Positions 16,327 to 63,374 of a stretch of 64,000 nt of DNA are shown piece by piece. The position numbers and the translations under genes are program-made. The notes under the pieces were generated by a model. It was given only the letters and a program-made list of their open reading frames with translations, had not been told where the DNA came from and did no database searches. Source of the DNA: a virus (lineage: Duplodnaviria; Caudoviricetes); the IMG/VR virus record IMGVR_UViG_3300035520_001860, positions 1 to 64,000 of that record; one strand, written 5' to 3'. How positions within the stretch are numbered: position 1 is the first letter of the stretch; each line of letters opens with the position of its first letter.

Positions 16327-17361
16327 TTGGCAAAACGTATAGATATAACTGGACAACAATTTAGTAATTGGAAAGTAAATTATAGATTGAATAATAGCAG
16401 ATACATGTGCACATGTTTATTGTGCGGTAAACAGTATGAAGTTGAATCATACAAGCTTAGGAAAGGTTTGACTAAGTCATGCTTTAATTGTGCAATGAAT
16501 AACAGAAGTAATCAGCAAGTTAATAATAAGTATAACAAACTTTATAAATTATTTAAAAGTGAAAATGTTATATATAACACTGAAATATTTGCTTATTTAC
16601 CTGACAAAAAGATTGGGGTAAATTTTGTACCTAATGTTGACAATGAAAATACTACAATGTACAATGTTCAAAAATTAACATTACAGTATAGAGAAAAAGG
16701 TATAAGGCTTATTAACATTTTTAGTTATGAATGGGAAGATGAAGATAAGCAAGATAAATTAGTAAATACAATAAAGATCGCACTTGGTACATCAGAAATA
16801 AGAAGAATATATGCAAGAAAAACAAAAATAGTACTTATGAATAGTAGGGATACTAGGGAGTTTCTTGATGAAAACCATTTACAAGGCTACACATCAGCAC
16901 CTATAAATATAGGATTAACATATAATAATGAACTTGTAGCTTTAATGACATTTGGAAGGCCAAGATTTAGTGGTGAATCAGAATATGAATTGATTAGATT
17001 AGCATTTAAAGCAAACACAATAATCCTTGGTGGAGAAGAAAAGCTATTTAGATATTTCATACAAACATATAAGCCAGATAGTGTACTAAGCTATTGTAAC
17101 TTAACAAAGTTTAGGGGAGATTCATATTATAAAGTAGGATTTAAAACATATGGAGATTGTATTACATCACCTAATTATATGTGGGTAAATGATGAATTAA
17201 AATTAGCATTACCAAGATATAAGTGTATGAAACATAAATTATTACAAAGAGGCTGGGGAACAGCAGATATGACAGAAAATGAAATTATGAGATCAATAGG
17301 TTTCAAAAAGGTTTATGATGCAGGTAACATAAAATTTTTATGGTATGCAGAATCAAATTAG
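16327..17361 (+). CDS. Zn-repeat / degenerate PD-(D/E)XK / Mom-like GNAT protein, paralog 1 (1 repeat)
   Basis: One DITGQQF...CTCLLCG...SCFNC repeat; eroded nuclease motif EIFAYLPDKKIGVNF; intact YARK...NHLQGY...TFGRPRF...YELIRL domain. Confidence 0.75.
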   Translation: MAKRIDITGQQFSNWKVNYRLNNSRYMCTCLLCGKQYEVESYKLRKGLTKSCFNCAMNNRSNQQVNNKYNKLYKLFKSENVIYNTEIFAYLPDKKIGVNFVPNVDNENTTMYNVQKLTLQYREKGIRLINIFSYEWEDEDKQDKLVNTIKIALGTSEIRRIYARKTKIVLMNSRDTREFLDENHLQGYTSAPINIGLTYNNELVALMTFGRPRFSGESEYELIRLAFKANTIILGGEEKLFRYFIQTYKPDSVLSYCNLTKFRGDSYYKVGFKTYGDCITSPNYMWVNDELKLALPRYKCMKHKLLQRGWGTADMTENEIMRSIGFKKVYDAGNIKFLWYAESN

Positions 17362-17377
17362 TAGGAGGCACACAGAT

Positions 17378-17953
17378 ATGGGATTATTTAACAAAAAGAA
17401 AAATAAAGATGATATTCAAATTGATATTAGTAAGCTTAGAATGAATGAAGGAGCAATATTCGGTGAAGCAGTACCAACAAATGAATTTAGTAAAGATGAT
17501 AGTTTTAGTATAAAAGGCAATGGTGATACTGAAGATGATAGATTTGAAATAGAAGATGATGGCTTTGGAAAAGATCCATTTAGTGCAGACGATGATTATT
17601 TTGATGGCTTTGGAAACGAGCATAGTTATTGGACTGAAAGTTTACATAAGTTTAAATCAGAAGATGAGAAGCATAAAGAAAAATGTGAAGAACTTAGAAA
17701 AATTAGAAAAAGTATGGCAAAAACATTAGGTGCACCAGAGTTAGTAAGAGATGAACCATGTAATTATGAAGGACACTGTAGTGGAACATGTCCAGCATGT
17801 TGCATGGAAGAAAGAGCTCTTATGGATAGAATATATGAGCTTCATGAAAATGGTGTAATCAATATGGTGTATAGTGATGACATCAAGAATCTACAGAGAA
17901 AAGCAGAAAAATACAATGATGCTAATAATATGATTATGGGAGGCCTTGAGTAA
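17378..17953 (+). CDS. Cys-cluster protein (C-x23-C-x4-C-x3-CPAC) with an acidic N-terminal region
   Basis: KCEELRKIRK...CNYEGHCSGTCPACCMEE; AGGAGG RBS before ATG 17378. Confidence 0.75.
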   Translation: MGLFNKKKNKDDIQIDISKLRMNEGAIFGEAVPTNEFSKDDSFSIKGNGDTEDDRFEIEDDGFGKDPFSADDDYFDGFGNEHSYWTESLHKFKSEDEKHKEKCEELRKIRKSMAKTLGAPELVRDEPCNYEGHCSGTCPACCMEERALMDRIYELHENGVINMVYSDDIKNLQRKAEKYNDANNMIMGGLE

Positions 17954-18027
17954 TACACCGATGGACTGAATAGTGGTTTTGATATAGATGACAATAAAGG
18001 TACAGATAATACAGAGGAAACCAAAGA

Positions 18028-18642
18028 GTGAGCACATTCAAAGTTCAAGCAATCAACAGACACAGATTTAGTACAGATGGAAAAGGAGTTACAACATTAG
18101 TAGGTTTAGCAGGATGTCCATTAGATTGTAAATACTGCATAAACAAAAAGATATTACACAATGGTAAAATAAAAGAGATGACACCAGAAGAATTGTTAAG
18201 TAAAGTAATAATTGATTATTGTTACTTTTATGCAACAGGTGGAGGCATTACATTTGGTGGTGGAGAACCACTATTACAAAGTGAACAAATATTAGAGTTT
18301 ATTAACATTCTACCAACTAACATAGCAGTAAATATTGAAACATCATTAAACATTGAAAACAGCAGTGAAATAGAGAATCTAATAAATAAGATAGATCATT
18401 TATACATTGACATAAAAACAACAAACACAGAAGTTTATAAAGCATATACAGGAAAAAATAATGAAAACACACAAAATTTACTAAATTACATAGTAAAAGA
18501 AAACTTACAAACCAAGTGTACAATAAGAATACCAAGTATTCCAAATTACACAACAAAATCAGATATAGAAGAATCTATAAAGATAATTAAGCAACTAGGA
18601 TTTCAAGATATAGATACATTTGAATACATAATTAAAGATTGA
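18028..18642 (+). CDS. Radical SAM protein, glycyl-radical activating enzyme (PflA/NrdG)-like
   Basis: DGKG...GCPLDCKYC (CxxxCxxC), GGITFGGGEPLLQ, IETS, DIK. Confidence 0.88.
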   Translation: MSTFKVQAINRHRFSTDGKGVTTLVGLAGCPLDCKYCINKKILHNGKIKEMTPEELLSKVIIDYCYFYATGGGITFGGGEPLLQSEQILEFINILPTNIAVNIETSLNIENSSEIENLINKIDHLYIDIKTTNTEVYKAYTGKNNENTQNLLNYIVKENLQTKCTIRIPSIPNYTTKSDIEESIKIIKQLGFQDIDTFEYIIKD

Positions 18643-18694
18643 AAAATGTCAGTTTAATATATTAGGAAATATTTAATTATATAGGAGAAATAAA

Positions 18695-20119: not shown

Positions 20120-20238
20120 ATAACACTTGATTTTAAAAGACTAGTTAGCAGATTGAAATAACTAAAAACGAACTAGTTGATAGATGAGTATGTACCTAGA
20201 TTTTTAAAATTTAATAACATAAGGATATGACTAGTTAG

Positions 20239-20282
20239 AAAAAATGGCTACACTATATACTATATAGGGTAGTCATTTTTTT
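20239..20282. terminator. Long inverted repeat, probable bidirectional terminator
   Basis: AAAAAATGGCTAC-A-CTATATA / TATATAG-G-GTAGTCATTTTTT. Confidence 0.65.
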
Positions 20283-20344
20283 ATGCGTTAAAAACAATTT
20301 TGGTTAAATAAAATTTTTATTAAATAAATTAGGAGGAAATCTTT

Positions 20345-21184
20345 ATGAAAAAGGTATTAATGACATTATTAACATGTGCAATGCTATTAACAATACCTGT
20401 GACATCTGTGAGTGCAGGATCACTCGATAACTTAATCAGTGGTTCAGAAACTACAACTGATTCAAGTGCAAGTGATAATTCTAACTCAAGTTCCAGTTCT
20501 TCATCTTCACAAGCATCAAGTAGCTATGTATCTGCTGATGAGTATATAGCAGACCTGCAGTCTGCAACTGATTTATCAAGTGTTGATGTAGCTGGCGCAG
20601 ATAAAGTTAATGAAGGAATAAAGAAAGTAGCAGCTTTCATTATAAGAATAATATCCTATGCATTAACAGCATTTTTAGTAGTAAGAGTACTGTTAGATTT
20701 ACTTTACATTGCAATTCCTTTTACAAGATCATTCTTGTCTAACGGCTATGCAGGAAACGCAGCAGCTGGCGGTGGTGGAATGGGACCACAAGGCGGCATG
20801 GGCATGGGAGGCATGGGCGGAATGTCCGGTGGCTTCGGTGGCATGGGCGGCATGGGAATGAACAGAGGTTACGGCATGCATGGTGGTATGGGAGGCATGG
20901 GAGGCAGCATGGGAATGCAGAGCCAAGCAGGTGCTAGTCCAGCTATGGGTCGTACACAATGGGTATCTTCAGCAGCACTAAATGCAGTAGCAGCTGAATC
21001 TCAGCCTGGTCCAGATGGAAAACCACAGAGTGCACTTAAGTACTATGCAAAAGACATGGCAGTTACACTTGTACTTGTACCTATTCTTTTAACATTAGCA
21101 ATTACTGGAGCACTTTCAGATTTAGGATTCTTACTTGGTGATGTTATTGCAAAAGGTATTGCTAGCATAGGGTCAATGATTTAG
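20345..21184 (+). CDS. Exported membrane protein with Gly-Met-rich loop (two-TM paralog family member 1)
   Basis: Sec signal peptide (VSA), Ser-rich linker, TM with DLLYIAIP, GGMGGM repeats and a second TM. Confidence 0.75.
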   Translation: MKKVLMTLLTCAMLLTIPVTSVSAGSLDNLISGSETTTDSSASDNSNSSSSSSSSQASSSYVSADEYIADLQSATDLSSVDVAGADKVNEGIKKVAAFIIRIISYALTAFLVVRVLLDLLYIAIPFTRSFLSNGYAGNAAAGGGGMGPQGGMGMGGMGGMSGGFGGMGGMGMNRGYGMHGGMGGMGGSMGMQSQAGASPAMGRTQWVSSAALNAVAAESQPGPDGKPQSALKYYAKDMAVTLVLVPILLTLAITGALSDLGFLLGDVIAKGIASIGSMI

Positions 21185-40398: not shown

Positions 40399-42753
40399 AT
40401 GGGATTATTAGACAACAAGATATCACAAGATGATTTGAATAGAGTTAATGATATAAGACATCATCCTGACCTCGAACCTGGTTTTGATGGTGGTGGAGAT
40501 GACTGGTTAAGCGGAGGTGACTCTGGCGGTGGGAGTGACTTTGATGGATTAGACAGTCTTTTTTCTGATGATCTAGGGTCCTCTGGTGGAAACGACATAT
40601 TTGGTGGAGGTTCATCAGGTGGAAGCTCTTTTGGTAGCGATAGTGGTACATTTGGCAGCAACAGTGGTACATTTGGCAGCAATAGGTTTAATAATGGAGG
40701 TACTTTTGGTAACAGTGGAAGTACCTTTGGTAGTAATGGATTCGGTGGTAATACATTTGGTAACAACGGATTCGGCGGTCTTGGTGGGCAAAACCAAATG
40801 CAGGGACAACAAGTACAACAGAAAGATACACTTGATAAAATGATGGATGCTGGGGCAGAGGCAGCTTCTGGCGTTGGGGCAATACTCGTTGAAATGGTAA
40901 AGTCATTCAAGGAAAGAAATGTAGATGACTATGGATACTTGAGTAAAAACCTAATTATTACTGGAGCAGCAATGCTAGGTATAAGTATCTTTGTAGCAAT
41001 TGCTGGAACAGTAGCTAGAGTAACAGCATTTCAATCTTTAGGAATAGAGTCAGCATTAAGTGGAGCACTGCTTGCAACAACGGGTATAGCAGGTTTAGGT
41101 ATAGCAGCTTTCATTTTAACTAAAATGGGAGATCAAGAACTAAATAATAACAACATTTCAAATATACCTGATGAACCAGCTGGTGATGACAATTTTACAG
41201 ATACATTAGATGATAACTCTGGAGATATAATGGATGACTTATTTGGTGATGACTTTGATGATTTATTTGGTGATGATACAACATCAAATATAGCAGCTGA
41301 ACCTGAGGAACCAGAACCAGAAGCAGAATCATTAGAGGTAACACCAATAAATTATAAGGATGAACTTGAAAAAATAAATGAAAACACATATTTATCTAGA
41401 CAAACATTAGTTGAAACATTCTGTAATATGTTCACAACAAATACTGTTGGTTTTGAAAAGAAAACAGAGATTAGTCCAGATTCAACAGAATGGAATCAGC
41501 TTGAGGCAATTTGTCTAAAAGCATTAGCAAACTTAGCAAACTGTACACTTGAGGAAGTAAACTCAAATTTGGAATCAGCAGACAAAACATTATTTGCTTA
41601 TGAACTCAGACTGAAAAGAATAAACAAAGTAAAACAGCCAGATGCTTTAGCAAAAGAAATAGAAATCTATGTAAGAGATGATGATAGTCCAGACGCAACA
41701 GTTACAGCTACAATCTCTGGTGATTTCTACAACATAATAATTGCAACAGGAGAAAATTATGTTGTAACATTTGGTGATGTATTTAAGCTTGATTATTGCA
41801 AGAATTTCTTCTTGAGTGATAAGAATAAGCTACCTATGATAACAGGTATAACAGAGTTAGGTAAAGTAATAGTCGATGATGCAAAGAACTTCGATACTAT
41901 GTTAGTAGCAGGTAAGCCTAGGTCAGGTAAATCATGGTATGTATTAAGTATACTCATGAGTTTAATTCTGTTTAATACACCAGAAGATGTTCAGTTTATC
42001 ATTGTGGATCCAAAAGAGTCAAACCTGTTTAAGACATTGAGTCTATTTCCCCATGTGTGTGGACTACATAATGATAAGCAAATCATTAAAATATTAGATG
42101 ATATCATTGAAGTAGAAGCACCAAGACGTAAGAAATTATTATCAGACAACAGATGCGATGATATATGGGCACTTAGAAAGAAAGGAATTAGACTTCCAGT
42201 GCTTTATTTAGTTATAGACGAGTATATAACTGTAATAAACAATTTAGACAAAGATGCTGCCAAAGAATTTGATGGTAAGATACAGACTCTAATTAGTCAG
42301 CTACCTTCCCAAGGAATCAGGCTCTTGTTCGTACCTCACAGAGCAACTGGGGTTGTAAATAAAACCAATAGAACAATGCTCCAATTTACGGCGGCCGTCA
42401 GAGCTGATATAGACGATGTAATTGATACACTCGGTGTTAAAAAGTGGGATAGAGCACTTACAAAACCCGGTGATATAGCTATAAAGACATCATCAACTCC
42501 TAAAGCAACATATGTTAAGGGTGCAGCATTAACTCCTAGTGACGAAGAGAATACACAATTTATGGAAACTGCAGCAGCAGCCTTCTATAAGATGGGTGTA
42601 GACATACCAGATATGAGTTCAATGAGAATAGCATGTAACAGAGACGAGGAATATGTTCAAAGTGAACTTGGAGCAACTGGAACAAACAGAGTGCAGTATG
42701 ATGCATCTGCAATAATAAATGATCTAGACAATATAGATTTAGACAACTTATAA
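40399..42753 (+). CDS. FtsK/SpoIIIE-family ATPase (TcpA/Orf21-type coupling protein or DNA translocase)
   Basis: Two TMs; LVAGKPRSGKS, IVDPK, LVIDEY, GIRL; Gly-rich N-terminus. Confidence 0.85.
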   Translation: MGLLDNKISQDDLNRVNDIRHHPDLEPGFDGGGDDWLSGGDSGGGSDFDGLDSLFSDDLGSSGGNDIFGGGSSGGSSFGSDSGTFGSNSGTFGSNRFNNGGTFGNSGSTFGSNGFGGNTFGNNGFGGLGGQNQMQGQQVQQKDTLDKMMDAGAEAASGVGAILVEMVKSFKERNVDDYGYLSKNLIITGAAMLGISIFVAIAGTVARVTAFQSLGIESALSGALLATTGIAGLGIAAFILTKMGDQELNNNNISNIPDEPAGDDNFTDTLDDNSGDIMDDLFGDDFDDLFGDDTTSNIAAEPEEPEPEAESLEVTPINYKDELEKINENTYLSRQTLVETFCNMFTTNTVGFEKKTEISPDSTEWNQLEAICLKALANLANCTLEEVNSNLESADKTLFAYELRLKRINKVKQPDALAKEIEIYVRDDDSPDATVTATISGDFYNIIIATGENYVVTFGDVFKLDYCKNFFLSDKNKLPMITGITELGKVIVDDAKNFDTMLVAGKPRSGKSWYVLSILMSLILFNTPEDVQFIIVDPKESNLFKTLSLFPHVCGLHNDKQIIKILDDIIEVEAPRRKKLLSDNRCDDIWALRKKGIRLPVLYLVIDEYITVINNLDKDAAKEFDGKIQTLISQLPSQGIRLLFVPHRATGVVNKTNRTMLQFTAAVRADIDDVIDTLGVKKWDRALTKPGDIAIKTSSTPKATYVKGAALTPSDEENTQFMETAAAAFYKMGVDIPDMSSMRIACNRDEEYVQSELGATGTNRVQYDASAIINDLDNIDLDNL
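40630..40780 (+). repeat. Coding short tandem repeats (GTFGSN/GGFG)
   Basis: AGTGGTACATTTGGCAGC at a 21-bp period, followed by degenerate copies. Confidence 0.7.
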
Positions 42754-42784: not shown

Positions 42785-44767
42785 ATGGGAGCACCTAGTA
42801 TTCCAAAGGAAAACATTACAGGTTTAGTTGTAAAGGGATGGATAGTAGATAGGTATGACACAAAAGGTAAATGGGTATGCAAGTGTGAAAAGTGTGGAAA
42901 AGAAGAAATATTCAGAGCATATCATTTAAAAGAAGCACGAGTTAAAATTTGTAATCATTCAAATAATAAGGCTACACATACATTTAAAGATGATTTGACA
43001 GGAAGAACCTTTGGTGAACTAAAAGTAATAGGATTTGATATAGTGAATGGTGTGTGGAAGTGTAAATGTTCATGTGGAAAAGAAGTATACCATACTACAT
43101 ATCAATTAGTAACAAGGGGTGTGAAAACATGTGGACACAGCAGTGGTGTACTAAAAGACCTTAGAGGAAAGAAATTTGGAGAATTAATACCAATTGAATA
43201 CCTAGGTGATAGAACCTGGAAATGTGAGTGTTCTTGTGGAAAAATTACAAACGTTAGAACAACTGACCTTGTGAGTGGAAACACACAATCATGTGGTCAT
43301 CTTAAAACCGGAGCACCTGTAATAGACTTAACAAATCAGCAATTTGGAAACTGGACAGCTTTAAAATATGTTGGAAACAGCTATTGGCAATGTAAGTGTA
43401 CCTGTGGTAATATAGAAAATGTTCATTCATATACATTAAGAAATGGAACATCAACAAGGTGTTCATCACCATTGCATAGAGTAACAGATATAAAAGGAAG
43501 ACAATTTGGTGAGCTACATGTTGAAGAATATACAGGCAATGGATTCTGGAAATGTAAGTGTTCCTGTGGTAAAACAAAAAACATACTTGGAGTCAACTTA
43601 AGAAATGGAAGTACTAGATCATGTGGATGTATGACAGACAAATTATTAAGACAAACATTATTTAGTAGATACAATGAGATATGTCCATCAAGAGTAGATA
43701 ATGCAAGAAGCACACAACAGATAGAAATTTTACATACAAAAGAATTGTTTAATGCACTCCTAGTAGAATACACAATAAGTTATGGAAAACCAGATGCATA
43801 TGCATTAGCAGATATATTAGGCGTTAGTAGATATACAATAGTCAACATGGCTAATAAGTATGATTTACTAGATAAAATAAAAATATACTATAATAGTAGT
43901 AAAGGAGAAAACCAGGTAGCAAACTTTGTAAGAAACATATACAACGGAGAAGTAATACAAAACACTAAGAAAATACTAGATAATGGCAAGGAACTAGATA
44001 TATACATCCCAGATAAACACATCGCAATAGAATTTAATGGAACCTACTGGCATTCCACAATCTACAAAGATAAGTATTATCATCAACAGAAAACATTAGA
44101 TTGTCATAGGCAAGGAATACGATTAATCCATATATTTGAATATGAATGGAATGATGCAGACACACAGCAGAAAATAAAGAATCACTTAGAATTACTATTA
44201 AGTAACAATATACAAACCATTGGAGCACGAAATACAGAAGTAAAAGAAATAGATAAGCAAACAGCAAAAGAGTTTATAGATAAGTACCATCTTCAGAAGT
44301 ATAGTGAGTCATCGGTTAATATAGGATGCTTTTACAACAACGAACTGATTGGAGCATTAACATTAGGTCATCCAAGATTCAACAGTGAGTATCAGTATGA
44401 AATCATAAGATTTTGTTGGAAAGATAGAGTAAAAGTAACAGGTGGCCTAGAGAAATTATTTTCATACTTTATAAAAAATTATCATCCAAAGTCAATAATG
44501 GCATACTCAGATATATCAAAGTTTACTGGCAATTGTTATACAAAGATAGATTTCAAACCAATAAAACAAAATACAATCACAGAACCAAACTACGTATGGG
44601 TTGATATAGAAAGCAACCAAGTACTATCAAGATACCAAACACAAAAGAAGAAGCTAATAGCTAATAATTTAGGTACAGAAGAACAAACAGAAGATGAGAT
44701 AATGGATAATAATGGATTTTTCAAGATATACAACTCAGGTAATATTAAGATGCAATGGGAATACTAA
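42785..44767 (+). CDS. Zn-repeat / HTH / PD-(D/E)XK nuclease / Mom-like GNAT protein, paralog 2 (5 repeats)
   Basis: Five DL.G..FG...W.C.CSCG...SCGH repeats; HTH ALADILGVSRYTI; ELDIYIPDKHIAIEFNGTYWHS; C-terminal GNAT-like domain. Confidence 0.82.
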   Translation: MGAPSIPKENITGLVVKGWIVDRYDTKGKWVCKCEKCGKEEIFRAYHLKEARVKICNHSNNKATHTFKDDLTGRTFGELKVIGFDIVNGVWKCKCSCGKEVYHTTYQLVTRGVKTCGHSSGVLKDLRGKKFGELIPIEYLGDRTWKCECSCGKITNVRTTDLVSGNTQSCGHLKTGAPVIDLTNQQFGNWTALKYVGNSYWQCKCTCGNIENVHSYTLRNGTSTRCSSPLHRVTDIKGRQFGELHVEEYTGNGFWKCKCSCGKTKNILGVNLRNGSTRSCGCMTDKLLRQTLFSRYNEICPSRVDNARSTQQIEILHTKELFNALLVEYTISYGKPDAYALADILGVSRYTIVNMANKYDLLDKIKIYYNSSKGENQVANFVRNIYNGEVIQNTKKILDNGKELDIYIPDKHIAIEFNGTYWHSTIYKDKYYHQQKTLDCHRQGIRLIHIFEYEWNDADTQQKIKNHLELLLSNNIQTIGARNTEVKEIDKQTAKEFIDKYHLQKYSESSVNIGCFYNNELIGALTLGHPRFNSEYQYEIIRFCWKDRVKVTGGLEKLFSYFIKNYHPKSIMAYSDISKFTGNCYTKIDFKPIKQNTITEPNYVWVDIESNQVLSRYQTQKKKLIANNLGTEEQTEDEIMDNNGFFKIYNSGNIKMQWEY

Positions 44768-49112: not shown

Positions 49113-50867
49113 ATGGCAGTACTAAACATAATTAAAAAGGACCTAATACCTAAGTATTATGTGTGTGAATTAAGCAAAGATAAGAGTGTAATTGTACATG
49201 AGAATTTGCTAGATAGTAACTTTACTAAAGTAAGAATGGACAAGAGAACTATAGATTTAACAGAAAGTAAGTTTGGTAATTGGCATGTGCATTATTATCT
49301 TGGGGATAGGAAGTGGTTATGTGAGTGTTCATGTGGTAGGCTATGTGCAGTTATTGGATATAATCTAAGTTCTGGTAGATCAACATCATGTGGGCATGAA
49401 AACTATGATGATTTAACAGGTAAGCGGTTCGGAGATTGGCAGGTACTAGAATATGCAGGAACTGAGCATGGAATGACTAGATGGTTATGTGAGTGTTCAT
49501 GCGGAAATAAAAAAGAGGTATATGCAAAAGTACTTACAAATGGGAGGAGTAAGTCATGTGGACATAGTACTAATGCTTTTAATGACCTTACTGGAAAGCA
49601 ATTTGGAGAATGGAGTGTTTTAGAGTATGAGGGGGACCACTATTATAAGTGTCAATGCTCCTGTGGCAAAATAAAAAGCGTAGCTGGGTATTCTTTAACA
49701 CGAGGAGATAGCTTATCTTGTGGGCATAAATCAGCAGCCTGTAGAAAAGATACAATGATGCAGAGATACGGAGACACAGTTCCTGGAAAAAATAGAGAGC
49801 AATGGCAAATAGATATATTATCATCAAAGGAGATATTGGAAGCTTACATAATACACAAAGGGTATAAGCCAACAGCAGAAGAGTTAGCTAAGGAACTTGG
49901 TATAAATAAAACTAATATGTATAGAAATATACATAAGTATGGTATAGAGAACCTTATACTCATAGACTATAATTCATCTAAATATGAAAGAGAGATTGTA
50001 GAATTACTGAATAGTTGGGGAATATGCAACATTGAGGTTAGAGATAAAAAACATGTACCTGGTTTCGAACTAGATATATACATCCCAGACAAAAAACTAG
50101 CAATAGAGTTTAATGGTAGTTATTGGCACTCAGATTTATATAAAGATAAATACTATCATCAAGAAAAAACAATCGAATGTGCAAAACGACACATACAATT
50201 AATTCACATATTTGAATATGAATGGAATGATAACGATACTAAAGAAAAATTAATTAATCTACTGTATACAAGACTAGTTAACACAAAAAATTATATAGGA
50301 GCAAGGGAAACAGTAGTAACATTTATAGATAGTAGTATAGCAAAAGAATTTTGCAATAAATATCATTTGCATGGGTATAGTAATTCAAGTATAAATATAG
50401 GATGCTATTATAAATCAGATTTAATAGGGGTTTTAACATTTGGAAAACCAAGATTTAACAGTAATTATCAATACGAATTAATAAGACTGTGCTGGAAAGA
50501 TGATATAAAGGTACACGGCGGATTAGAAAAAATGTTTACATTATTTATAAAAAGTTACAATGTAAATAATATTATCAGTTATTGTGATATATCAAAGTTT
50601 AATGGAAATGCATATTTGAGACTTGGTTTTACAGTGCAAAATATAAGTGAGCCAAACTATATATGGTATAATTTAAGTAAAAAAACTAAACTAACAAGAT
50701 ATAAAACTCAGAAACATAAATTAGTAGAGGCAGGATTTGGCGATGCAAACAGTACAGAGTCAGATATAATGGAAGACCTAGACTATGTAAAAATACATGA
50801 TAGTGGAAACTTAGTTTTAGAATGGAGAAATCAAAATGGCAGTCAAAGTACCAACAATATGGAATGA
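49113..50867 (+). CDS. Zn-repeat / HTH / PD-(D/E)XK nuclease / Mom-like GNAT protein, paralog 3 (3 repeats)
   Basis: Three repeats; HTH ELAKELGINKTNM; ELDIYIPDKKLAIEFNGSYWHS; GNAT-like C-terminus. Confidence 0.82.
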   Translation: MAVLNIIKKDLIPKYYVCELSKDKSVIVHENLLDSNFTKVRMDKRTIDLTESKFGNWHVHYYLGDRKWLCECSCGRLCAVIGYNLSSGRSTSCGHENYDDLTGKRFGDWQVLEYAGTEHGMTRWLCECSCGNKKEVYAKVLTNGRSKSCGHSTNAFNDLTGKQFGEWSVLEYEGDHYYKCQCSCGKIKSVAGYSLTRGDSLSCGHKSAACRKDTMMQRYGDTVPGKNREQWQIDILSSKEILEAYIIHKGYKPTAEELAKELGINKTNMYRNIHKYGIENLILIDYNSSKYEREIVELLNSWGICNIEVRDKKHVPGFELDIYIPDKKLAIEFNGSYWHSDLYKDKYYHQEKTIECAKRHIQLIHIFEYEWNDNDTKEKLINLLYTRLVNTKNYIGARETVVTFIDSSIAKEFCNKYHLHGYSNSSINIGCYYKSDLIGVLTFGKPRFNSNYQYELIRLCWKDDIKVHGGLEKMFTLFIKSYNVNNIISYCDISKFNGNAYLRLGFTVQNISEPNYIWYNLSKKTKLTRYKTQKHKLVEAGFGDANSTESDIMEDLDYVKIHDSGNLVLEWRNQNGSQSTNNME

Positions 50868-52467
50868 TATGTATATAGGAAATATGAGTGAACCACAAGC
50901 AGAACTAATAATGCAGACAAGACAATCCAATGTTATTCCAAATTTAAAGAAAATGCTATTTAATTTTCCTTATGAGCTCATACAACAGAGTATAGAAGAA
51001 CAACAAAGTATAAGAAATATAATTAAAAGAGATAATATAGACTATACACAATACATATCAGAATTAAGAGATTACCAAACAGTGGGGACTGCATTCATGT
51101 ATTTATCACCAAGAAGCATAATCGCCGATGGGTGTGGGCTTGGGAAAACTGCTGAGGTCAGCGCTCTTATCAACTGGTTACTTTATAAAGGTGAAATGAC
51201 AAGATTTCTTATGGCTGTTGAAAATAGTGCTGTTGGTCAAACACAGGCTGAAATTATGAGATTTACTGGACTTTATGTCGTTGCATTACCATCAGAGGCA
51301 GCAAAGCTAAAGAAAGTAATAGAGCACACTGATTGGACAAAAGTTGACGGTATTGTAATTAAGCACAGTACATTAAGAAGTGATGCATTCAGTAAATGGT
51401 TAGCACTGAATATCAATTCTGAAGGGCTATGTAATTTATTTGACACTTTCTTTCTTGATGAATCATCAGTAATAAAGAATGATACAACAAAAATGTATCA
51501 GTATACAAAGAACATATGTCAAATAGTCAAGAGAGTTCATCTTATGAACGCTACTACTTTTGAAACTAGCATTGTTGATATTTATAATCAAATTGATATG
51601 ATGGACCAAACACTGTTACCAAAGAAGTGGAGAATAGAAAAAGAGTTCTGTACATTTACACGTACACAGTACTGGACAAAAGAAAATGGCAAAGCTAAAT
51701 TAAACTGGAGGCATGAACGATCTGGATATAAGAATCAAGCAATATTTAAGGAATCATTGAAACTCGTTTATTTTGGCAGATGTAAAGCAGACATTGGCAT
51801 GGATTTACCACATGTTTACAAAGTGTTTGAAGTAGAGCCAACAAATGCTATGAGTGTTGGGTTATCCAAAGGGTATAGATACAGTGAATTACTTAATTGT
51901 CCAAGTCTAATTCCAGAAGCAAACATACCAATGGATAGAAAGAATGTTCCAAAACTTGATAGGTTATGTGACCTTGTAGAGAATGACTTTTCAGATTCAA
52001 GTATAATGATATATTGTTTTCACATAGAGGCACAGAGAGTAATAGCAGATGAACTTGCAAAGATTGGTAGGAAACCAGTAATACTTAATGGAAGTATCAC
52101 AGATTCAAATGAGAGATACAAGATTCAACAAGATTTTAACAATGGGATTTATGATGTAATCATAACAAACATTAAGAAATCATTAAACTTATATGGTGGG
52201 GATGTTTGTATATTTTATAGCATGGAAACAAATCCTAGTAAGTCTTTTCAAATAGCATCTCGTATAGATAGAAATGTCTCTGATGATATAAAAACATTCG
52301 TTATGTTATTGTATAAAGGCACTGATGAGTATAAGTTCTTTACTACAACAGTTAAGCAGCGAGCAAAAGATGCTAGGGATCTTACAATTGATGCTAAAAC
52401 AACAGTAGATTTCTTCTTTGAATCAATGATGGCAGAGGAAACAGCCGAACTAAATGGTAAAGCCTAA
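50836..52467 (+). CDS. SNF2-family helicase/translocase
   Basis: LRDYQ, IIADGCGLGKT, LDES, SLNL, Q..SRIDR motifs. Confidence 0.85.
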   Translation: MAVKVPTIWNDMYIGNMSEPQAELIMQTRQSNVIPNLKKMLFNFPYELIQQSIEEQQSIRNIIKRDNIDYTQYISELRDYQTVGTAFMYLSPRSIIADGCGLGKTAEVSALINWLLYKGEMTRFLMAVENSAVGQTQAEIMRFTGLYVVALPSEAAKLKKVIEHTDWTKVDGIVIKHSTLRSDAFSKWLALNINSEGLCNLFDTFFLDESSVIKNDTTKMYQYTKNICQIVKRVHLMNATTFETSIVDIYNQIDMMDQTLLPKKWRIEKEFCTFTRTQYWTKENGKAKLNWRHERSGYKNQAIFKESLKLVYFGRCKADIGMDLPHVYKVFEVEPTNAMSVGLSKGYRYSELLNCPSLIPEANIPMDRKNVPKLDRLCDLVENDFSDSSIMIYCFHIEAQRVIADELAKIGRKPVILNGSITDSNERYKIQQDFNNGIYDVIITNIKKSLNLYGGDVCIFYSMETNPSKSFQIASRIDRNVSDDIKTFVMLLYKGTDEYKFFTTTVKQRAKDARDLTIDAKTTVDFFFESMMAEETAELNGKA

Positions 52468-56500: not shown

Positions 56501-59425
56501 ATGAGTAAGATTGATATTAAGACTTTAAAATTGACAGATGACCAAAAAGAAGTTTATAATGAAGCTATGATTTCACTTGCAAATCATAATCAGGCTGCTA
56601 TACATTTAGTGACAAGTGGTGGTAAGTCATATATCTTAGCAGCTATTCTTGATACTCTTAAGAAGCAGAAGAAGAAAAGACGTAAGAATCTAAGTGTATT
56701 ATACATATCTACTGCTGGGTCATGTACTAACTTTTTAGAGTGTATGTCAGATGAGTATTGGGATGATGTACTGTCAGTCATTAACTATACTCAGCTAAGT
56801 GTCGATGAGAAATATGTGGATAAACTTAATAAAAAGGATTTTGACATCATAGTTCTTGACGAAGCACATCTTGCTCTTGCAGAAAAAACATACAAAGGTG
56901 TATTATATACAGAGAGTAAATATCCAGATGCAGCTATAATTGCAATGTCTGCAAACAACAGAAGATATACAGGCAGAAAGCTTGTATTTGAAATACTGAC
57001 ACCTGAACTTGAAGTTGGTGTAGACTACAATAATAGAGGGTTGAAGTATGCAATAGCAAATGATAAAATATGCAAGTTTAATTACAAGTGCTGTGATATT
57101 AAAAGACTTAAAACATATTGTGATGTGTTTGAACAACTAAGACAAAGAGGATTGATTTATGTAGATGCAGATGATATACTGAATAAAGCAAGAGATATAG
57201 TAGACAGATATAAGAAGAATGCATTTAATAAATTAGGAGTACAGATAAGACAAGATTTGTCAGATATTGGTATTGATGGAAGCAAAGGGGATAGATGGTT
57301 TATCTTCTTTAATACAATAGCTGAACTTGAGGAATCAGCAAGTGCTGTGCAAGATATGTTTGAAACAGCATATAATAGTCAAAATATCACTGTAAAATGT
57401 CATCATTATCATGGCAAAAACAGAGATGTAGAGGATATCGAAAAGATTTTAACAGGTAAATCAACTCCTTATACAGTTGATGTTATAATGACATGTGAAA
57501 AGGGTGGAATGAGCTTTCATCCAGAGAATACACGTGGAATTATTATGAACAGAAAAAGTGGTTCAGAAGTTAAAATCACTCAGCAGTTGGGTAGAACACT
57601 TCAGATTAAAGAGTTATGTTCAGATTGTAAATTGATTTATGACCTTGTTGGAAATAATGAAACAATTGATATAACTCAAACAATCTTTAATGGAAAGCAG
57701 CAGCCTGATGAAAGAGATATTATATCTTGGCTTAATATGAGTACTAACACAGATAAAATGATGGAGTCGCTTGAGAAAGAATATGGTGACACAGGAGAGT
57801 ATTCAACAATTCAAGATGTAGAACTAGAAGACATTCTATCACAATTTGATGAATATAAAGAAAAAGTTGAAAACATACTTTATGCAAAAATCATAGCAAA
57901 CTTATTTGATGTGTATAAGAGTGAACATGATGGAGTTATGAGTGAGCATCCATTAGCTATACTTCGATCTTATGATAAGAGGGCTGAACTCGATAAGAAA
58001 TATGGATTAGCAGATGCATTTTCTGCTTTACAGAAGTTGTTTATTCAAGGCTACTTTGGAAATTATACCATGGATGCAGTACCAGAAGGTAGCGATTTCT
58101 ATAAGATTTATAGTTTACTTGGTGACACATTGTATATGACATCAAAGTGTAATGCTGATGCAACATGGGAGGATAAAGAATACGAAGAAACAGCTAATAT
58201 TAAACTTGTAGAGTTACAGGAGATAGCACTTAAAGTTAAGGGTTATGACTATGACTATGCAAAGAGAATATCACATACAAAGGATTTAAACAATAAGATT
58301 ACAAGACTAAGACAGCTTAATCTTGAAGGTAGACTATCTGAATCTTATCAGAAATACTGCATGAGAAACAAGATAGATATAGATGGAACTTATGTAAACT
58401 TGATAAATGCAGTATTAAGTCTGCCAGAAGCAGATAAGTTTGAAAAGATTACCAAAGAATTTAAAGCCATTGTTTCAAAGATGACAAACATTGAAACACA
58501 GATAGCATGTGGCATAAAAGTAGATGAAATGAGAGATGACTTATTAAAAGTATTTGCAATGCATCAGATATTTAGTATCAGATACAGAAGGCATACTTAT
58601 GGTAATCAGGCTATTATTGCAATAAACGTTAGATTTAGAAATATAATCATTTTAAGAAATAAAATGCTATCTCGTGATGATGTACTAACAGCACAGAAAG
58701 ATATAATGACAATAGTAAGAATAAGAATGTGCAAAGGGGATGCATCACTTAGCAGTAGAATAAATAAGGATTACGAGTTAGCAATGATGCAGTTGTCCAT
58801 TAGAAATGAGAATGGAGCAATTGGAGAATATGAATCGGTCGTACTAGATACATTAGGTATGAGATTTAGAGGTAAGTATGACAGCAAGATTAGAGACTTA
58901 ATAGATCATACTCCATTTGGTATTGCATATAATCAACTGTTAGAAAGCGGTTCTGAAACAGCTTATAACAAGCTTATGGAATACAAAATTGAGAACATGC
59001 CATTGTATTGTAGAAAACTACTTAATACGAAAAAATTCAAGCAGTCAACTGATGAAGTAAAGAGTAACAAATTACTTGTAAAAGACAGTAAGGAGATTAA
59101 ACAGCTTGTGTCAAATTTAGTATTTCCATCTGAACAAGATATAAATGACCTTAAACATAAAGTCGAAACAGAAGAATTTGATCCAAGAAATTTGATTAAG
59201 TATGCAATACCAGAGAAAGTTTATTTAAGTAACAAGAAGTTTCTTGATAGAGCAATTACTGAACAGTGGGGCAGTATAGAGAATAATGTACAGAATATTA
59301 TTCTCTCTATCATTAAGAAAAATACAATGTGTACTGGAGATATTGTAGAATGTCTGTATACTAATAAACTTATACCAGAGATTCAGATGGAATTTGCAGA
59401 CAATGTTATTAAAGTTACACAGTAA
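56501..59425 (+). CDS. Superfamily 2 helicase (ResIII/DEAH-like) with a long helical C-terminal region
   Basis: LTDDQ, TSGGKS, LDEAH, MSAN, QQLGRTL; GGAG RBS favours ATG 56501. Confidence 0.78.
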   Translation: MSKIDIKTLKLTDDQKEVYNEAMISLANHNQAAIHLVTSGGKSYILAAILDTLKKQKKKRRKNLSVLYISTAGSCTNFLECMSDEYWDDVLSVINYTQLSVDEKYVDKLNKKDFDIIVLDEAHLALAEKTYKGVLYTESKYPDAAIIAMSANNRRYTGRKLVFEILTPELEVGVDYNNRGLKYAIANDKICKFNYKCCDIKRLKTYCDVFEQLRQRGLIYVDADDILNKARDIVDRYKKNAFNKLGVQIRQDLSDIGIDGSKGDRWFIFFNTIAELEESASAVQDMFETAYNSQNITVKCHHYHGKNRDVEDIEKILTGKSTPYTVDVIMTCEKGGMSFHPENTRGIIMNRKSGSEVKITQQLGRTLQIKELCSDCKLIYDLVGNNETIDITQTIFNGKQQPDERDIISWLNMSTNTDKMMESLEKEYGDTGEYSTIQDVELEDILSQFDEYKEKVENILYAKIIANLFDVYKSEHDGVMSEHPLAILRSYDKRAELDKKYGLADAFSALQKLFIQGYFGNYTMDAVPEGSDFYKIYSLLGDTLYMTSKCNADATWEDKEYEETANIKLVELQEIALKVKGYDYDYAKRISHTKDLNNKITRLRQLNLEGRLSESYQKYCMRNKIDIDGTYVNLINAVLSLPEADKFEKITKEFKAIVSKMTNIETQIACGIKVDEMRDDLLKVFAMHQIFSIRYRRHTYGNQAIIAINVRFRNIIILRNKMLSRDDVLTAQKDIMTIVRIRMCKGDASLSSRINKDYELAMMQLSIRNENGAIGEYESVVLDTLGMRFRGKYDSKIRDLIDHTPFGIAYNQLLESGSETAYNKLMEYKIENMPLYCRKLLNTKKFKQSTDEVKSNKLLVKDSKEIKQLVSNLVFPSEQDINDLKHKVETEEFDPRNLIKYAIPEKVYLSNKKFLDRAITEQWGSIENNVQNIILSIIKKNTMCTGDIVECLYTNKLIPEIQMEFADNVIKVTQ

Positions 59426-59649
59426 CTATATTTTAACAAGATACAAAACAATTATACAGTGAAATTATAAAAATTGACACTAATAAATATAGGGTAATCT
59501 GTGCTAATTTTTAGTATACAGTATTATATATTTGAATAATCTGGGCAAACAGCATTATTGTATAATAAGTATGATTTATTATTAGTTAATTATTTTAAAA
59601 AATAATTGATTAAAACATGTAAAATTTATTTAGGAGGACATACGGAAAG

Positions 59650-61659
59650 ATGGCTAATCAAGTACAAACTGACAATCGTAACATGAAACGATTGAAAGAC
59701 GAACAACAGGTTAGACAAAGACCAGCGCCTATATTCGGAACCAATGATGAAAAAGGTGCATTTCATTCAGTAGATGAGGTTATAGCAAACTCTATTGATG
59801 AGGCACGCGAGGGATATGGTAAGGAAATTGATATTACTGTTGAAGAAGGAAATGTAGTCACAGTAGAAGATAGTGGACGTGGACTTCCAATGGATTGGAA
59901 CGAAGCAGAGAAGATGTACAACTGGGAGTTAGCACTTTGTACATTGTATGCATCAGGTAAATATGATGCATCTCAGTATGGACAGTCACTTGGACTTAAT
60001 GGACTTGGACTTACAGCAACACAGTATGCATCAGACTTCATGGAAGTATGGTCAACATATGGTGGTAAGACAAGATACATGCAGTTCTCAAAAGGAAAAC
60101 CAGTAGGTCAGATGAAAATAATGAACCCAGTTAGAGAGGGAACAGGTACAAAGATTCGATTCAGACCAGACCCAGAAGTATTCCCAGCATTGAGATATAA
60201 TAAACTTACACCTGATATGTTTGTTGATATGCTTAATAGTCAAGCAATGCTTTTAGATGGACTTGCAATTAACTTTAAACATTGTGACTTGACAAACACA
60301 ATTGTGTTTAAGTACGATGGTGGAATGGCAGAGTATGTAGATAGAGTAGTTGAAGACAAGAAAATATTACCAGAGGCTGCATACTTCTTTGATAGTGAAA
60401 CAGGAACAGATGACCCAGAACATGATGCTATGAATGACATTCCAAACTATAAGGTTGATATGCGATTAGCATTTAACTTCTGTAGAGATAGAAGCGTTGT
60501 AAGAGTATATCATAACGGTTCAAACATGTTCGAGGGTGGAGTTACAGTAGATGGATTACAAAGAGGTATTGTTGGTGCTTTCTCTGATGTAGCAAAGGCT
60601 ACTGGTAAGATAAGTAAATCAGACAGATTTTCATACAAAGACATTGAGAGCATGCTAATCTGTGTAGCTAGTACAGATGCACCAGGTAATAGAACATGGT
60701 TTAAAAACCAGACAAAAGGAGCAATCAATAACCCATTCATTGGTAAGGCATTTGCACAGTTTGTATATAACAAAATACGTTACTGGTTAGAACAGAATAC
60801 AGCTTTAGCTACAAAAGTAATTGCAGAAGCAGTTATCAATAAAAAAGCTCGTGAGGAAGCTGCAGAAGTATCTAAGAAAGTCGTTCGTTCTTTAAGTAAA
60901 TCAGTTAACTTTTCAAACAAGCCAAAAGATTTTAGAGATTGTTCTAGTAAGAATATCTTTGAAAGAGAGCTATATATCGTAGAAGGACGTTCCGCACTCG
61001 GTAGTGTAAAACTAGCATGTAATCCAAAATTTCAGGCTGTAATGCCTGTTAGGGGCAAGCCTATCAACTGTCTAAAGGAAAACATAACAAGAGTACTCAA
61101 TAACGATATTATTATTGACTTATACAGAGTATTTGGTTGTGGAATGGAAGTTAAGCATAAGAACTTGGAGGATTTACCAAAGTTTGATATTACAAAACTC
61201 AACTGGGGAAAATTAATCATATGTACTGATGCCGATGTTGATGGAAACCATATCAGATGTTTGTTAATTACAATGTTCTATATTCTTAGTCCTAGTCTGC
61301 TAAAGGCTGGTAAAGTTTATATTGCAGAAACTCCATTGTATGAGATGACATACAAGAAAGAAACAAAATTTGCATTTGATGATAATGAGAAAGAGCAAGT
61401 GCTTGCTTACTTCAAAAACATGGGAGCAAAGGATGGACAGGTAAAGATTCAGCGTTCTAAGGGATTAGGTGAGAACGATCCTGAGATGATGAGTTTATCA
61501 ACAATGAATCCTGAGACAAGACGACTCATTAGAGTTGAATATCCTGAGAATGACTCTGATTTAAGAACATACTTCAATGCATTACTTGGAGATGACCTTG
61601 AAGCAAGACGAGCATTAATTGATGAGTATTTTGATTTAGTTGATGGAAACTTAGACTAA
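59650..61659 (+). CDS. gyrB: Type IIA topoisomerase subunit B (GyrB/ParE)
   Basis: VRQRP, EVIANSIDE, DSGRGLP, GLNGLG, VEGRSA, PVRGK, DADVDG, RSKGLGE. Confidence 0.92.
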   Translation: MANQVQTDNRNMKRLKDEQQVRQRPAPIFGTNDEKGAFHSVDEVIANSIDEAREGYGKEIDITVEEGNVVTVEDSGRGLPMDWNEAEKMYNWELALCTLYASGKYDASQYGQSLGLNGLGLTATQYASDFMEVWSTYGGKTRYMQFSKGKPVGQMKIMNPVREGTGTKIRFRPDPEVFPALRYNKLTPDMFVDMLNSQAMLLDGLAINFKHCDLTNTIVFKYDGGMAEYVDRVVEDKKILPEAAYFFDSETGTDDPEHDAMNDIPNYKVDMRLAFNFCRDRSVVRVYHNGSNMFEGGVTVDGLQRGIVGAFSDVAKATGKISKSDRFSYKDIESMLICVASTDAPGNRTWFKNQTKGAINNPFIGKAFAQFVYNKIRYWLEQNTALATKVIAEAVINKKAREEAAEVSKKVVRSLSKSVNFSNKPKDFRDCSSKNIFERELYIVEGRSALGSVKLACNPKFQAVMPVRGKPINCLKENITRVLNNDIIIDLYRVFGCGMEVKHKNLEDLPKFDITKLNWGKLIICTDADVDGNHIRCLLITMFYILSPSLLKAGKVYIAETPLYEMTYKKETKFAFDDNEKEQVLAYFKNMGAKDGQVKIQRSKGLGENDPEMMSLSTMNPETRRLIRVEYPENDSDLRTYFNALLGDDLEARRALIDEYFDLVDGNLD

Positions 61660-61680
61660 TAATCAAATATAAATGAGATT

Positions 61681-61721
61681 AAAAATAGGAGCATATATTA
61701 AAAATATGTTCCTATTTTTTT
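61681..61721 (+). terminator. Rho-independent terminator
   Basis: AAAAATAGGAGCATAT / ATATGTTCCTATTTTT. Confidence 0.82.
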
Positions 61722-61781
61722 ACATTGTTAATAATATTATTATAAAATCAATTTTTTAAAATTTAGAAACAGGAGATTAAA

Positions 61782-63374
61782 ATGCAACCGACTTTTCAAG
61801 ATTTGACTGGACAAAAATTTGGTGAAATGACAGTAGTTGGATATAACAGGGATGTAAGAAGATGGATTTGTGTTTGTGATAAAGGGCACTATTGTTACAA
61901 GCAAACAACACACTTGAAAACAAGACATAATATATGTAAACAGTGTAAAGCACAAAAAGATGCTTCATTAGTTGGAAGTAAAATAGGAGAATTGACAGTA
62001 CTAAAACAGGTATCAAGCCAAGAATATTTATGTCAATGTTCATGTGGAAAGACATGTATAAAACAAAAAGGACACTTAGTAGGTGGATATGTAAAATCAT
62101 GTGGACATTTGAACAAAAATAAATTTGAGAATTTAAGAGGTCAAAGATTTGGAAAACTTGTAGCAGAAGAGTATGTATCAAAAGAGGCAGGTTGGAAATG
62201 CAAGTGTGATTGCGGTAATATAGTAAATGCTCTACCAGCTAATCTAAAAAACGGAAGTACAGCTTCATGTGGATGTAGTAATCCATATAAATTAATAGAT
62301 ATAACAAACAAGAGATTTGGAAAATTAGTAGCAGTAAGACACATATACAGAGGATTGTGGGAGTGCCAGTGTGATTGCGGTAACATATGCGAAAAACAAT
62401 CATATGATTTAAGAAATAACAGAGTTATATCATGTGGATGTGAGTCTAGCGAATCATATAAAGAGTTTCAGTTATATGAATATATAAGGTCAATATACAA
62501 CGGAGAAATTATAAAGCATAACAAAACAATATTAAAAGGTAAAGAGATAGATATATACATACCAGAAAAACATATTGCAATAGAGTTCAACGGTAACTAT
62601 TGGCATTCTTTAAAAGAAAAAAGATATCATCAAGATAAAACAATAGACTGCGTAAAACAGAAGATAAGACTGATTCATATTTTTGAGTATGAATGGGATA
62701 ACGATATTATACAAGAAAAATTAAAAATATACTTAAAGACAATATTAAATGAAAGTGAAGCTAAAGTAATATATGCAAGAAACACAAATGTACACGAGAT
62801 AAATCAGGATATAGCACAAGAATTTTTAAATAAGTATCATTTACAAGGATATGCATCATCTACAATTAACATAGGATGTTATTATAATGAACAACTGATT
62901 GGAATGATGACATTTGGTAAACCAAGATTTAACAACTCCTACGAATATGAAATAGTAAGACTATGTTGGTTGCCTACAATACATGTAGTTGGGGGCTTGG
63001 AAAAATTATTTAGCTATTTCCTTACAAAATATAATCCACAATCTATTATAACCTATGTAGACATTTCCAAGTTTACAGGTAATTCATATTTAAGAATAGG
63101 GTTTAAGTTGATACTACCAGACCCTATAACTAAGCCAAACTATGTATGGGTATCACACCATGGCAACACAGTAAAAAAACGGTATCAAACACAAAAAGCA
63201 GACCTTGTTAAAAATGGACTTGGAACAGAAGACCAAACCGAAGATGAGATTATGGAATCATTAGGTTATTATAAAATATATGATTGTGGTAATATCAAAC
63301 TAGAGTGGGTTAAGGAGGATAACAATAAATGGGAAATCACGACTATATACAAAAGGGAAATAACGGTGGTATAG
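61782..63374 (+). CDS. Zn-repeat / PD-(D/E)XK nuclease / Mom-like GNAT protein, paralog 4 (4 repeats, no HTH)
   Basis: Four repeats; EIDIYIPEKHIAIEFNGNYWHS; GNAT-like C-terminus. Confidence 0.82.
   Translation: MQPTFQDLTGQKFGEMTVVGYNRDVRRWICVCDKGHYCYKQTTHLKTRHNICKQCKAQKDASLVGSKIGELTVLKQVSSQEYLCQCSCGKTCIKQKGHLVGGYVKSCGHLNKNKFENLRGQRFGKLVAEEYVSKEAGWKCKCDCGNIVNALPANLKNGSTASCGCSNPYKLIDITNKRFGKLVAVRHIYRGLWECQCDCGNICEKQSYDLRNNRVISCGCESSESYKEFQLYEYIRSIYNGEIIKHNKTILKGKEIDIYIPEKHIAIEFNGNYWHSLKEKRYHQDKTIDCVKQKIRLIHIFEYEWDNDIIQEKLKIYLKTILNESEAKVIYARNTNVHEINQDIAQEFLNKYHLQGYASSTINIGCYYNEQLIGMMTFGKPRFNNSYEYEIVRLCWLPTIHVVGGLEKLFSYFLTKYNPQSIITYVDISKFTGNSYLRIGFKLILPDPITKPNYVWVSHHGNTVKKRYQTQKADLVKNGLGTEDQTEDEIMESLGYYKIYDCGNIKLEWVKEDNNKWEITTIYKREITVV

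Follow-up and report, generated by a model that had tools for sequence, protein, structure and literature searches.

We analysed a 64,000-nucleotide stretch of viral DNA, hereafter the window, which covers positions 1 to 64,000 of an IMG/VR virus record of 133,586 bp (IMGVR_UViG_3300035520_001860; CheckV completeness 59%) with every gene on one strand and a G+C content of ~32%. Four paralogous genes in the window, and a fifth further along the record, are candidate homing endonuclease genes: each codes for an N-terminal array of one or more zinc modules, in some copies a helix-turn-helix (HTH) stretch, a nuclease region and a C-terminal domain that resembles the Mom protein of phage Mu. The nuclease and the Mom-like domain together are referred to as the cassette. 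Positions are those of the window unless the record is named.

Paralog 1: 16327-17361, + strand, 344 amino acids (aa), TTG start; match to phrog_3339 at E 1e-64
Paralog 1, parts: zinc module 16336-16488, decayed nuclease 16513-16791, intact Mom-like domain 16795-17346, + strand
Paralog 2: 42785-44767, + strand, 660 aa; match to phrog_3339 at E 2e-88
Paralog 2, zinc-module array: 42797-43636, + strand, five modules of ~54 aa; repeat hidden Markov model (HMM), 62-80 bits per module
Paralog 2, HTH stretch between array and nuclease: 43796-43861, + strand; aligns with the HTH stretch of paralog 3, weak evidence
Paralog 2, predicted EDxHD (Vsr-fold) nuclease: 43901-44206, + strand; E403, D405, E416, H423; match to 3r3p at E 1e-5
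Paralog 2, Mom-like GNAT domain: 44207-44761, + strand; H502, R542, D576, K579, Y585, W605
Paralog 3: 49113-50867, + strand, 584 aa; its stop overlaps the start of a SNF2-type helicase gene (50836)
Paralog 3, parts: array 49239-49733 (3 modules), HTH 49872-49937, nuclease 49980-50282, Mom-like domain 50283-50828, + strand
Paralog 4: 61782-63374, + strand, 530 aa, without HTH
Paralog 4, parts: array 61785-62447 (4 modules), nuclease 62457-62753, Mom-like domain 62754-63311, + strand
Paralog 5: 74503-76395 of the record, beyond the window; 5 zinc modules and an HTH
Sixth, different gene: 82530-84002 of the record (L002:531-2003); EDxHD-like N-terminus, two DUF4379 treble-clef zinc fingers, without Mom-like domain
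FtsK/SpoIIIE-like gene: 40399-42753; paralog 2 lies directly downstream
Neighbours of paralog 4: topoisomerase II large-subunit gene 59650-61659 on one side, 337-aa open reading frame (63329-) on the other

Five paralogous genes and their family

The open reading frames (ORFs) at 16327, 42785, 49113 and 61782, to which an earlier note on this DNA had drawn attention, were confirmed on the + strand, and the repeat counts of 1, 5, 3 and 4 given there agree with those of the repeat HMM, the first repeat of paralog 4 being weak (28.8 bits). The four paralogs are 42-49% identical to one another. A profile built from them recovered all four from the whole record at E-values of 1e-174 to 1e-271, far past chance, together with paralog 5 as a fifth full copy and a nuclease-only match in the sixth gene; the count over the whole 133.6-kb record, in line with a check proposed in the note, is five paralogs and one different nuclease-DUF4379 gene. 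The note had seen an HTH in paralogs 2 and 3 only, which is true within the window, and paralog 5, outside it, has one as well. The HTH stretches give weak Pfam HTH matches, and searching with a profile made from 59 homologs gives a weak match to the sigma-28 region-4 HTH (1rp3, E 0.5). The modular build of a variable zinc-module array followed by a constant nuclease-GNAT cassette, also put forward in the note, is supported. In the 123 homologs whose modules were counted, there are between 1 and 10 of them, and proteins with more modules are longer (r = 0.96).

Full-length matches to phrog_3339, annotated 'homing endonuclease', have E-values of 1e-64 to 1e-89, phrog_559 is matched as well, and tblastn returned matches in 495 phage records annotated as Hef-like, F-LimX or EDxHD homing endonucleases. 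Phrog_3339 and these annotated records uphold the link to Hef-like homing endonucleases that the note had drawn. The family comprises at least 2084 homologs at E <=1e-5; the identity of the paralogs to homologs from cultured phages is below 45%, and a megablast search with paralog 2 against cultured phages gave no match.

Predicted nuclease, Mom-like domain and zinc modules

In profile searches the nuclease matches I-Bth0305I (PDB 3r3p; E 6e-5 and 1e-5), the enzyme on which Taylor et al. defined the EDxHD family with phage Hef-type endonucleases included (PMC3239194). The Asp and His of the present family fall on D196 and H213 of I-Bth0305I in the profile alignment (D196A and H213A in the mutant chain). 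An AlphaFold2 model of the paralog 3 cassette has a predicted local distance difference test (pLDDT) score of 94.4 and superimposes on 3r3p with a template modelling (TM) score of 0.73 and a root-mean-square deviation of 3.4 over 102 columns, at 28% identity. The nuclease is accordingly modelled as a Vsr-like, PD-(D/E)XK-derived EDxHD fold. Its D, its E, on the AIE.NG strand, and its H are intact in paralogs 2-5, and 122 of 124 homologs keep these residues. The homodimer prediction of the nuclease-plus-Mom-like cassette had a score of 0.00, which is evidence neither way.

The GNAT-like C-terminal domain described in the note is present and can be refined to Mom-like. Taken domain by domain, as the note had advised, AlphaFold2, Foldseek and profile searches point to a Vsr-type nuclease like 3r3p and a C-terminal domain like that of phage Mu Mom. 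In a Foldseek search with the cassette, Mu Mom (8bv8) was the top match (E 2.8e-6, probability 1.00), above ordinary acetyltransferases, and phrog_1384, a 'Mom-like DNA modification protein', matched with E 3e-8 over positions 11-179 of 245. The Pfam Mom model PF25680 scored 25.4, 19.8 and 20.0 bits against a gathering cut-off of 27.1, over its first ~50 profile positions only, and a precomputed PF25680.2 match exists for paralog 2 and several homologs. Mom transferases pass glycine from Gly-tRNA to N6 of adenine in dsDNA, and Mom H58, Y59, R111, S124, D149, R151, Y159 and W181 are required for momylation. Sequence identity of the domain to Mom is ~15%, and when the family profile was aligned by hhalign with Mom as a single sequence (global; weak local), no usable alignment resulted. 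A profile-profile comparison with an alignment of 107 Mom homologs aligned the first half of the domain with a probability of 83% and E 9e-6, and paired two invariant residues of the family, H418 and R458, with Mom H58 and R111, respectively. For the second half, a register guided by topology would place D492, K495, Y501 and W518 on Mom D149, R151, Y159 and W181, respectively. R458, K495, Y501 and W518 are invariant in 124 homologs, and the column equivalent to D149 holds D in 103 and N in 19 of the 124. In this register an invariant Lys takes the position of Mom R151, and the position of Mom Y59 is occupied by Leu. The cassette model also has helices between the strands at residues 237-241 and 279-283, where Mom carries its 175-209 insertion, which is essential in Mom (PMC13219725). 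According to the model, the domain has a GNAT fold with a Mom-type insertion before the last strands. Since residues aligned with Mom H58 and R111 and, in the topology-guided register, with D149, R151 (as Lys), Y159 and W181 are kept, the domain is probably, if speculatively, a working nucleic-acid transferase or a base-flipping reader.

The note had ascribed the nuclease motif and the GNAT domain to all four window paralogs, which stands for paralogs 2-4, but in paralog 1 the motif is lost, with F88, N99 and N106 in place of the D, E and H. As these catalytic residues are replaced, paralog 1 is a decayed member of the family. It keeps 7 of 20 conserved nuclease columns versus 31 of 32 conserved columns of the Mom-like domain, and so uneven a loss speaks for selection on the Mom-like domain for a role beyond helping its own nuclease in cis. 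A search of IMG/VR for a close ortholog of paralog 1 returned only relatives of <=40% identity, which have intact nucleases and lack such zinc modules.

All 18 zinc modules of the 133.6-kb record fall within the five paralog genes. In 624 modules from 125 proteins, four Cys are near-invariant, arranged as CxCxC with the fourth Cys two residues ahead of a His or Cys, and conservation is high at the core positions, which hold Gly, Trp, Phe and Leu, with positions 30-38 and 40-45, between the ligands, highly variable. In an AlphaFold2 model of modules 3-5 of paralog 2, each module consists of three strands and a short helix of 5-6 residues. The pLDDT is 89 within the modules, and the predicted TM score is 0.43, so that the placement of the modules relative to each other is not confident; the three-module model looks, as may be expected, like beads on a string. 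The note had spoken of candidate zinc-finger nucleases, which does not hold in the classical sense of the finger: a C2H2 beta-beta-alpha finger is ruled out by the three strands plus short helix and the CxCxC...C-x-(H/C) ligands, and the modules are small beta-rich units.

Pfam zinc-finger models and Pfam DUF4379 gave no match to the modules, and 2 of the 18 modules match Pfam CapR below threshold (E 0.0047-0.01). A Foldseek search of the PDB with the three-module model had no match at E <=1e-3, and a wide VIA-align search gave Z scores of <=5.1, inside the stated noise range of the tool, to Tudor, KOW, PWWP and SH3-like barrels. As the former was empty and the latter matched generic small beta-barrels only, the module cannot be assigned a homolog of solved structure. 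Among viral proteins, structural matches in BFVD number 151 at E <=1e-3 and include AP2, HNH, restriction endonuclease (REase) and homing-endonuclease proteins as well as a 'treble clef zinc finger' protein; phrog_374, an 'HNH endonuclease', matches 3-5 times per protein. The phrog_374 and BFVD matches also bear out the note's statement that such Cys repeats occur in HNH and AP2 phage proteins. The module occurs in tandem, beside diverse nuclease domains, and is widespread in viral proteins. A 320-aa 'HNH endonuclease' of Enterococcus phage EFDG1 (L021, 103086-104048) has zinc modules and an HTH and no Pfam nuclease domain, and there may be regulators or remnants that consist of modules plus HTH and have no nuclease.

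Occupied and empty sites in related phages

The genes near the paralogs code for a clamp loader, an FtsK-like ATPase, helicases, a split topoisomerase II, a DnaB-like helicase and a RuvC-like resolvase. This region is the replication module of a large uncultured (jumbo) phage. The best match of its topoisomerase II in the collection of cultured or deposited phages is 41% identical and comes from uncultured human faecal phage fragments. A closer relative is G001, a 268-kb IMG/VR contig with a topoisomerase II 81% identical to that of this phage. Mobility was assessed by comparing gene order with G001, and same-site orthologs were found in two other phage contigs (L003, L004).

At the site of paralog 3, G001 is empty: the helicase gene comes directly after an 85-aa ORF, and the intergenic spacer is exactly where homology is interrupted. 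G001 also lacks a gene at the site of paralog 4, with the topoisomerase gene and a T-rich tail followed by the ortholog of the 337-aa ORF and homology resuming at both junctions, and at the site of paralog 5, which lies between the DnaB-like gene and a 222-aa ORF. The junctions of all three empty sites are clean and their flanks conserved. With three of five sites unoccupied in so near a relative, the genes are dispensable. The only filled site in G001 is that of paralog 2, which holds a homolog with 3 modules, not 5; this is the one full homolog in the 268 kb. An ortholog of paralog 3 (P0005, 62% identity) occupies the same site in another phage contig whose flanking genes are 85% identical, and likewise an ortholog of paralog 5 (P0061, 59% identity) is found at the same site between flanking genes of 71% identity. 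Group I and group II intron models gave no match in the window, and the genes are thus free-standing. A scattered occurrence of this kind is characteristic of free-standing homing endonuclease genes, and those of T4-like phages show the same sporadic, site-faithful and intergenic distribution (PMC2988022, PMC3296691).

The site of paralog 1 is occupied in G001 by two unrelated ORFs, one of which (57953-59248; L019:5954-7246) codes for an N-terminal EDxHD-like nuclease followed by two DUF4379 treble-clef fingers, without a Mom-like domain. With a second kind of EDxHD gene filling the site of paralog 1 in G001, this intergenic site looks like a hot spot for differing endonuclease genes.

In a tree of the cassettes the five copies do not form one clade; paralog 3 groups with P0005 and paralog 5 with P0061 (Shimodaira-Hasegawa-like approximate likelihood ratio test, 98). 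A recent expansion within the replicon is ruled out by this tree, and the note's view that the family had 'expanded within one replicon' is not supported, since the nearest relatives of paralogs 3 and 5 belong to other phages at the same sites. In the absence of a single clade, the copies are old lineages or separate arrivals. Between paralogs, array identity is 0.31-0.46 versus 0.51-0.59 for the cassette, and in the two same-site ortholog pairs the values for array versus cassette are 0.62 versus 0.62 and 0.68 versus 0.54. The conservation of the arrays in same-site pairs would fit a site-related role of the array, without proving it. More distant relatives of the cassette have intact nucleases and other N-terminal regions without this module, which indicates that the cassette has been combined with different front ends.

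Several observations concern the junctions with the neighbouring genes. The stops of paralogs 1, 3 and 4 run into the start of the next gene by 17, 32 and 46 nt, respectively. The first three codons of paralog 3 (49113-49121) are ATGGCAGTA (Met-Ala-Val), as in the helicase gene that follows (50836-50844), and in G001, where this site is empty, the helicase gene opens with the same three codons; judged from these codons, the paralog 3 element may be an insertion just inside the helicase start that has taken over its initiation signals. The topoisomerase II is divided over two genes ~9 kb apart (59650-61659 of the window and 70606-72858 of the record), between which lie paralog 4, the 337-aa ORF and a 1248-aa ORF (64364-68110) that is not found in G001.

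GC-rich patches lie close to two of the genes. One (51120-51168), 253 nt past the stop of paralog 3, falls on the Walker A codons of the SNF2-type helicase gene, and a stronger one (74270-74342 of the record; L001:11271-11343), with 9 CpG, lies 161 nt ahead of paralog 5, where the DnaB-like helicase gene codes for conserved motifs. Both have a G+C content of 57-58% in this 32% G+C genome, the changes are mostly synonymous, and the patches are unique to this genome, with none in relatives with or without the endonuclease gene. We speculate that they may be recoded endonuclease target sites; they may also be due to chance. The longest GC-rich patch of the record (20734-20944, 211 nt, 61% G+C, 9 CpG) lies within a 279-aa ORF (20345-21184).

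Proposed homing, modification and reading of DNA

Taken together, the domain order, the catalytic residues, the family membership and the polymorphic intergenic placement beside replication genes make it likely that this uncultured jumbo phage carries homing endonuclease genes which are free-standing and belong, within the EDxHD (Vsr-fold) family, to the Hef-like branch. According to a review, Hef of phage U5 cleaves nrdB, and homing by Hef has been shown experimentally (PMC2988022), and phage LIMEstone1 has four free-standing Hef-like genes (PMC3296691). The present genes resemble Hef and the Hef-like genes of T4-related, ViI-like and Campylobacter phages in having a nuclease-Mom-like cassette, in being free-standing and multi-copy and in lying beside conserved genes, but compared with the Hef-like genes of cultured phages they have longer arrays, of up to 5 modules here and up to 10 in metagenomic relatives. 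I-Bth0305I shares the Vsr-like fold, the aligned catalytic Asp and His and a DNA-binding region N-terminal to the nuclease, whereas it is intron-encoded, has NUMOD and HTH motifs instead of zinc modules and ends at the nuclease without a Mom-like domain.

Endonucleases encoded in introns and described in 2025 have three to five CapR/DUF4379/DUF723-like domains of ~60 aa and an EDxHD/Vsr nuclease, and their CapR-like arrays, with thousands of relatives, were proposed to be NUMOD-like DNA binders (PMC12350094). They are alike in the order of tandem Cys modules of ~55-60 aa followed by an EDxHD-type nuclease, and weak CapR matches are found here too; the modules are likened by description. In contrast to the present free-standing genes with their Mom-like domain, they reside in group I or group II introns and end with a nuclease of ~100 aa.

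Several points weigh against the homing interpretation. Cleavage, DNA binding and homing are all predicted from the genes alone. The same-site orthologs are 59-62% identical versus 71-85% for their flanking genes, which also fits long-term vertical retention. The homolog at the paralog 2 site in G001 has a different array (3 versus 5 modules, 38% identity), and array and site are therefore not strictly coupled. For the Mom-like domain, the PF25680 match of paralog 2 (E 1.3e-5, 25.4 bits) lies just below the cut-off, the profile alignment of the second half with Mom is not significant (E 0.67), its register following from the order of secondary structure only, and no counterpart of Mom S124 was assigned.

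If the genes are homing endonuclease genes, the N-terminal array, together with the HTH where present, would anchor the protein to the DNA of an element-free phage, at a long site of loose specificity that lies within or next to the conserved gene in the neighbourhood. The EDxHD nuclease would then cut the element-free allele, probably as a dimer like I-Bth0305I, and repair from a co-infecting, element-bearing genome would copy the gene in. Differing arrays would direct the copies to differing sites. The role of the Mom-like domain is the most speculative part of this model; most likely it would label or shield the genome that bears the element, at the target or close to it, by modifying or reading a base there. 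Paralog 1 might survive as a modification-only or binding-only remnant.

A different function has been proposed for related proteins. Fusions of REase and Mom domains in jumbo phages, described in 2021 with up to five per genome, were read as restriction-modification (Iyer et al., PMC7824862), and they share with the present proteins the REase-fold fusion and the several copies per phage. On this model, the genes would form a restriction-modification-like conflict system in which the Mom-like domain modifies adenines of the phage and the nuclease destroys unmodified host or superinfecting DNA, and they would be weapons rather than homing elements. The conserved residues of the Mom pocket would suit such a system, and paralog 1, with its dead nuclease and intact Mom-like domain, resembles an orphan modification enzyme. 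However, a genome-wide role does not predict polymorphic, site-specific placement by replication genes or the experimental homing of Hef (PMC2988022), and arrays of 3-5 modules with an HTH suggest long, rare targets, not frequent sites. The restriction-modification reading is compatible with the domain data, fails to explain the placement data, and we regard it as unlikely, with the context here pointing to homing. Both functions can also coincide, as homing endonucleases are known to act in marker exclusion when relatives co-infect. Phage Mu Mom itself (8bv8; PMC13219725) is alike in its GNAT fold, in the insertion before the last strands and in the counterparts of H58 and R111, but differs in its ~15% identity and in the Lys at the position of R151 in our register, and the present domain is known from sequence and model alone.

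The earlier note had favoured natural zinc-finger nucleases with shufflable arrays; in a strong form of this view, each module would read a fixed short sub-site via a few variable residues, and arrays could be shuffled and reprogrammed like those of C2H2 fingers. This fits with the variation in module number from 1 to 10, with the near-invariant ligands and core versus the highly variable positions 30-38 and 40-45, with arrays that are kept in two same-site ortholog pairs and diverged between paralogs, and with the 151 viral proteins in which the same module adjoins HNH, AP2 and REase domains. Yet the fold is not beta-beta-alpha, the best solved matches are generic small beta-barrels (Z <=5.1) and DNA binding by the module is itself only predicted. 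The nuclease-associated modules of phage homing endonucleases bind in an extended, tolerant manner without a code (PMC3239194), and in I-Bth0305I, taken as a precedent, specificity is highest at the dimer of the nuclease rather than at accessory domains. The different array at the paralog 2 site of G001 also speaks against such a code, which seems to us quite unlikely.

One might further speculate that the genes are cut-and-modify elements. A single array would target both the nuclease and a Mom-type transferase to one long site, so that the carrier is chemically immunised at its own target and naive genomes are cut; the arrays would be exchangeable readers that retarget both activities, and dead copies such as paralog 1 would be site-specific orphan modifiers that protect against related endonucleases. 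This, too, we consider rather improbable. Domesticated, immobile phage proteins that serve the replication genes as site-specific DNA-binding or modifying factors and benefit the phage are very unlikely. In favour of such proteins, same-site orthologs persist though their flanking genes are only 71-85% identical, the Mom-like domain of paralog 1 is under apparent constraint without a nuclease, and the frames overlapping downstream gene starts suggest integrated expression; against them, 122 of 124 homologs have an intact nuclease triad and the empty sites of G001 argue that the genes are dispensable.

Homing endonuclease genes with each of these components have already been described or have close precedents, as the Hef-like genes, the EDxHD fold, the REase-Mom fusions and the CapR-like arrays were all known, and the present status of the genes is that of a well-supported annotation of known elements. 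The locus adds to this by uniting all three parts in genes that are free-standing, with defined empty-site alleles and a nuclease-dead, Mom-intact copy. The record therefore constitutes a compact natural comparison set of five divergent copies with 1-5 modules, three empty-site alleles and one nuclease-dead copy with an intact Mom-like domain. The central question that it raises is what role a Mom-like domain plays inside a homing endonuclease and how DNA is read by the zinc modules. If the modules are additive DNA readers, or if the Mom-like domain modifies DNA site-specifically, these proteins would be of interest for DNA-targeting tools and for our understanding of phage-phage competition.

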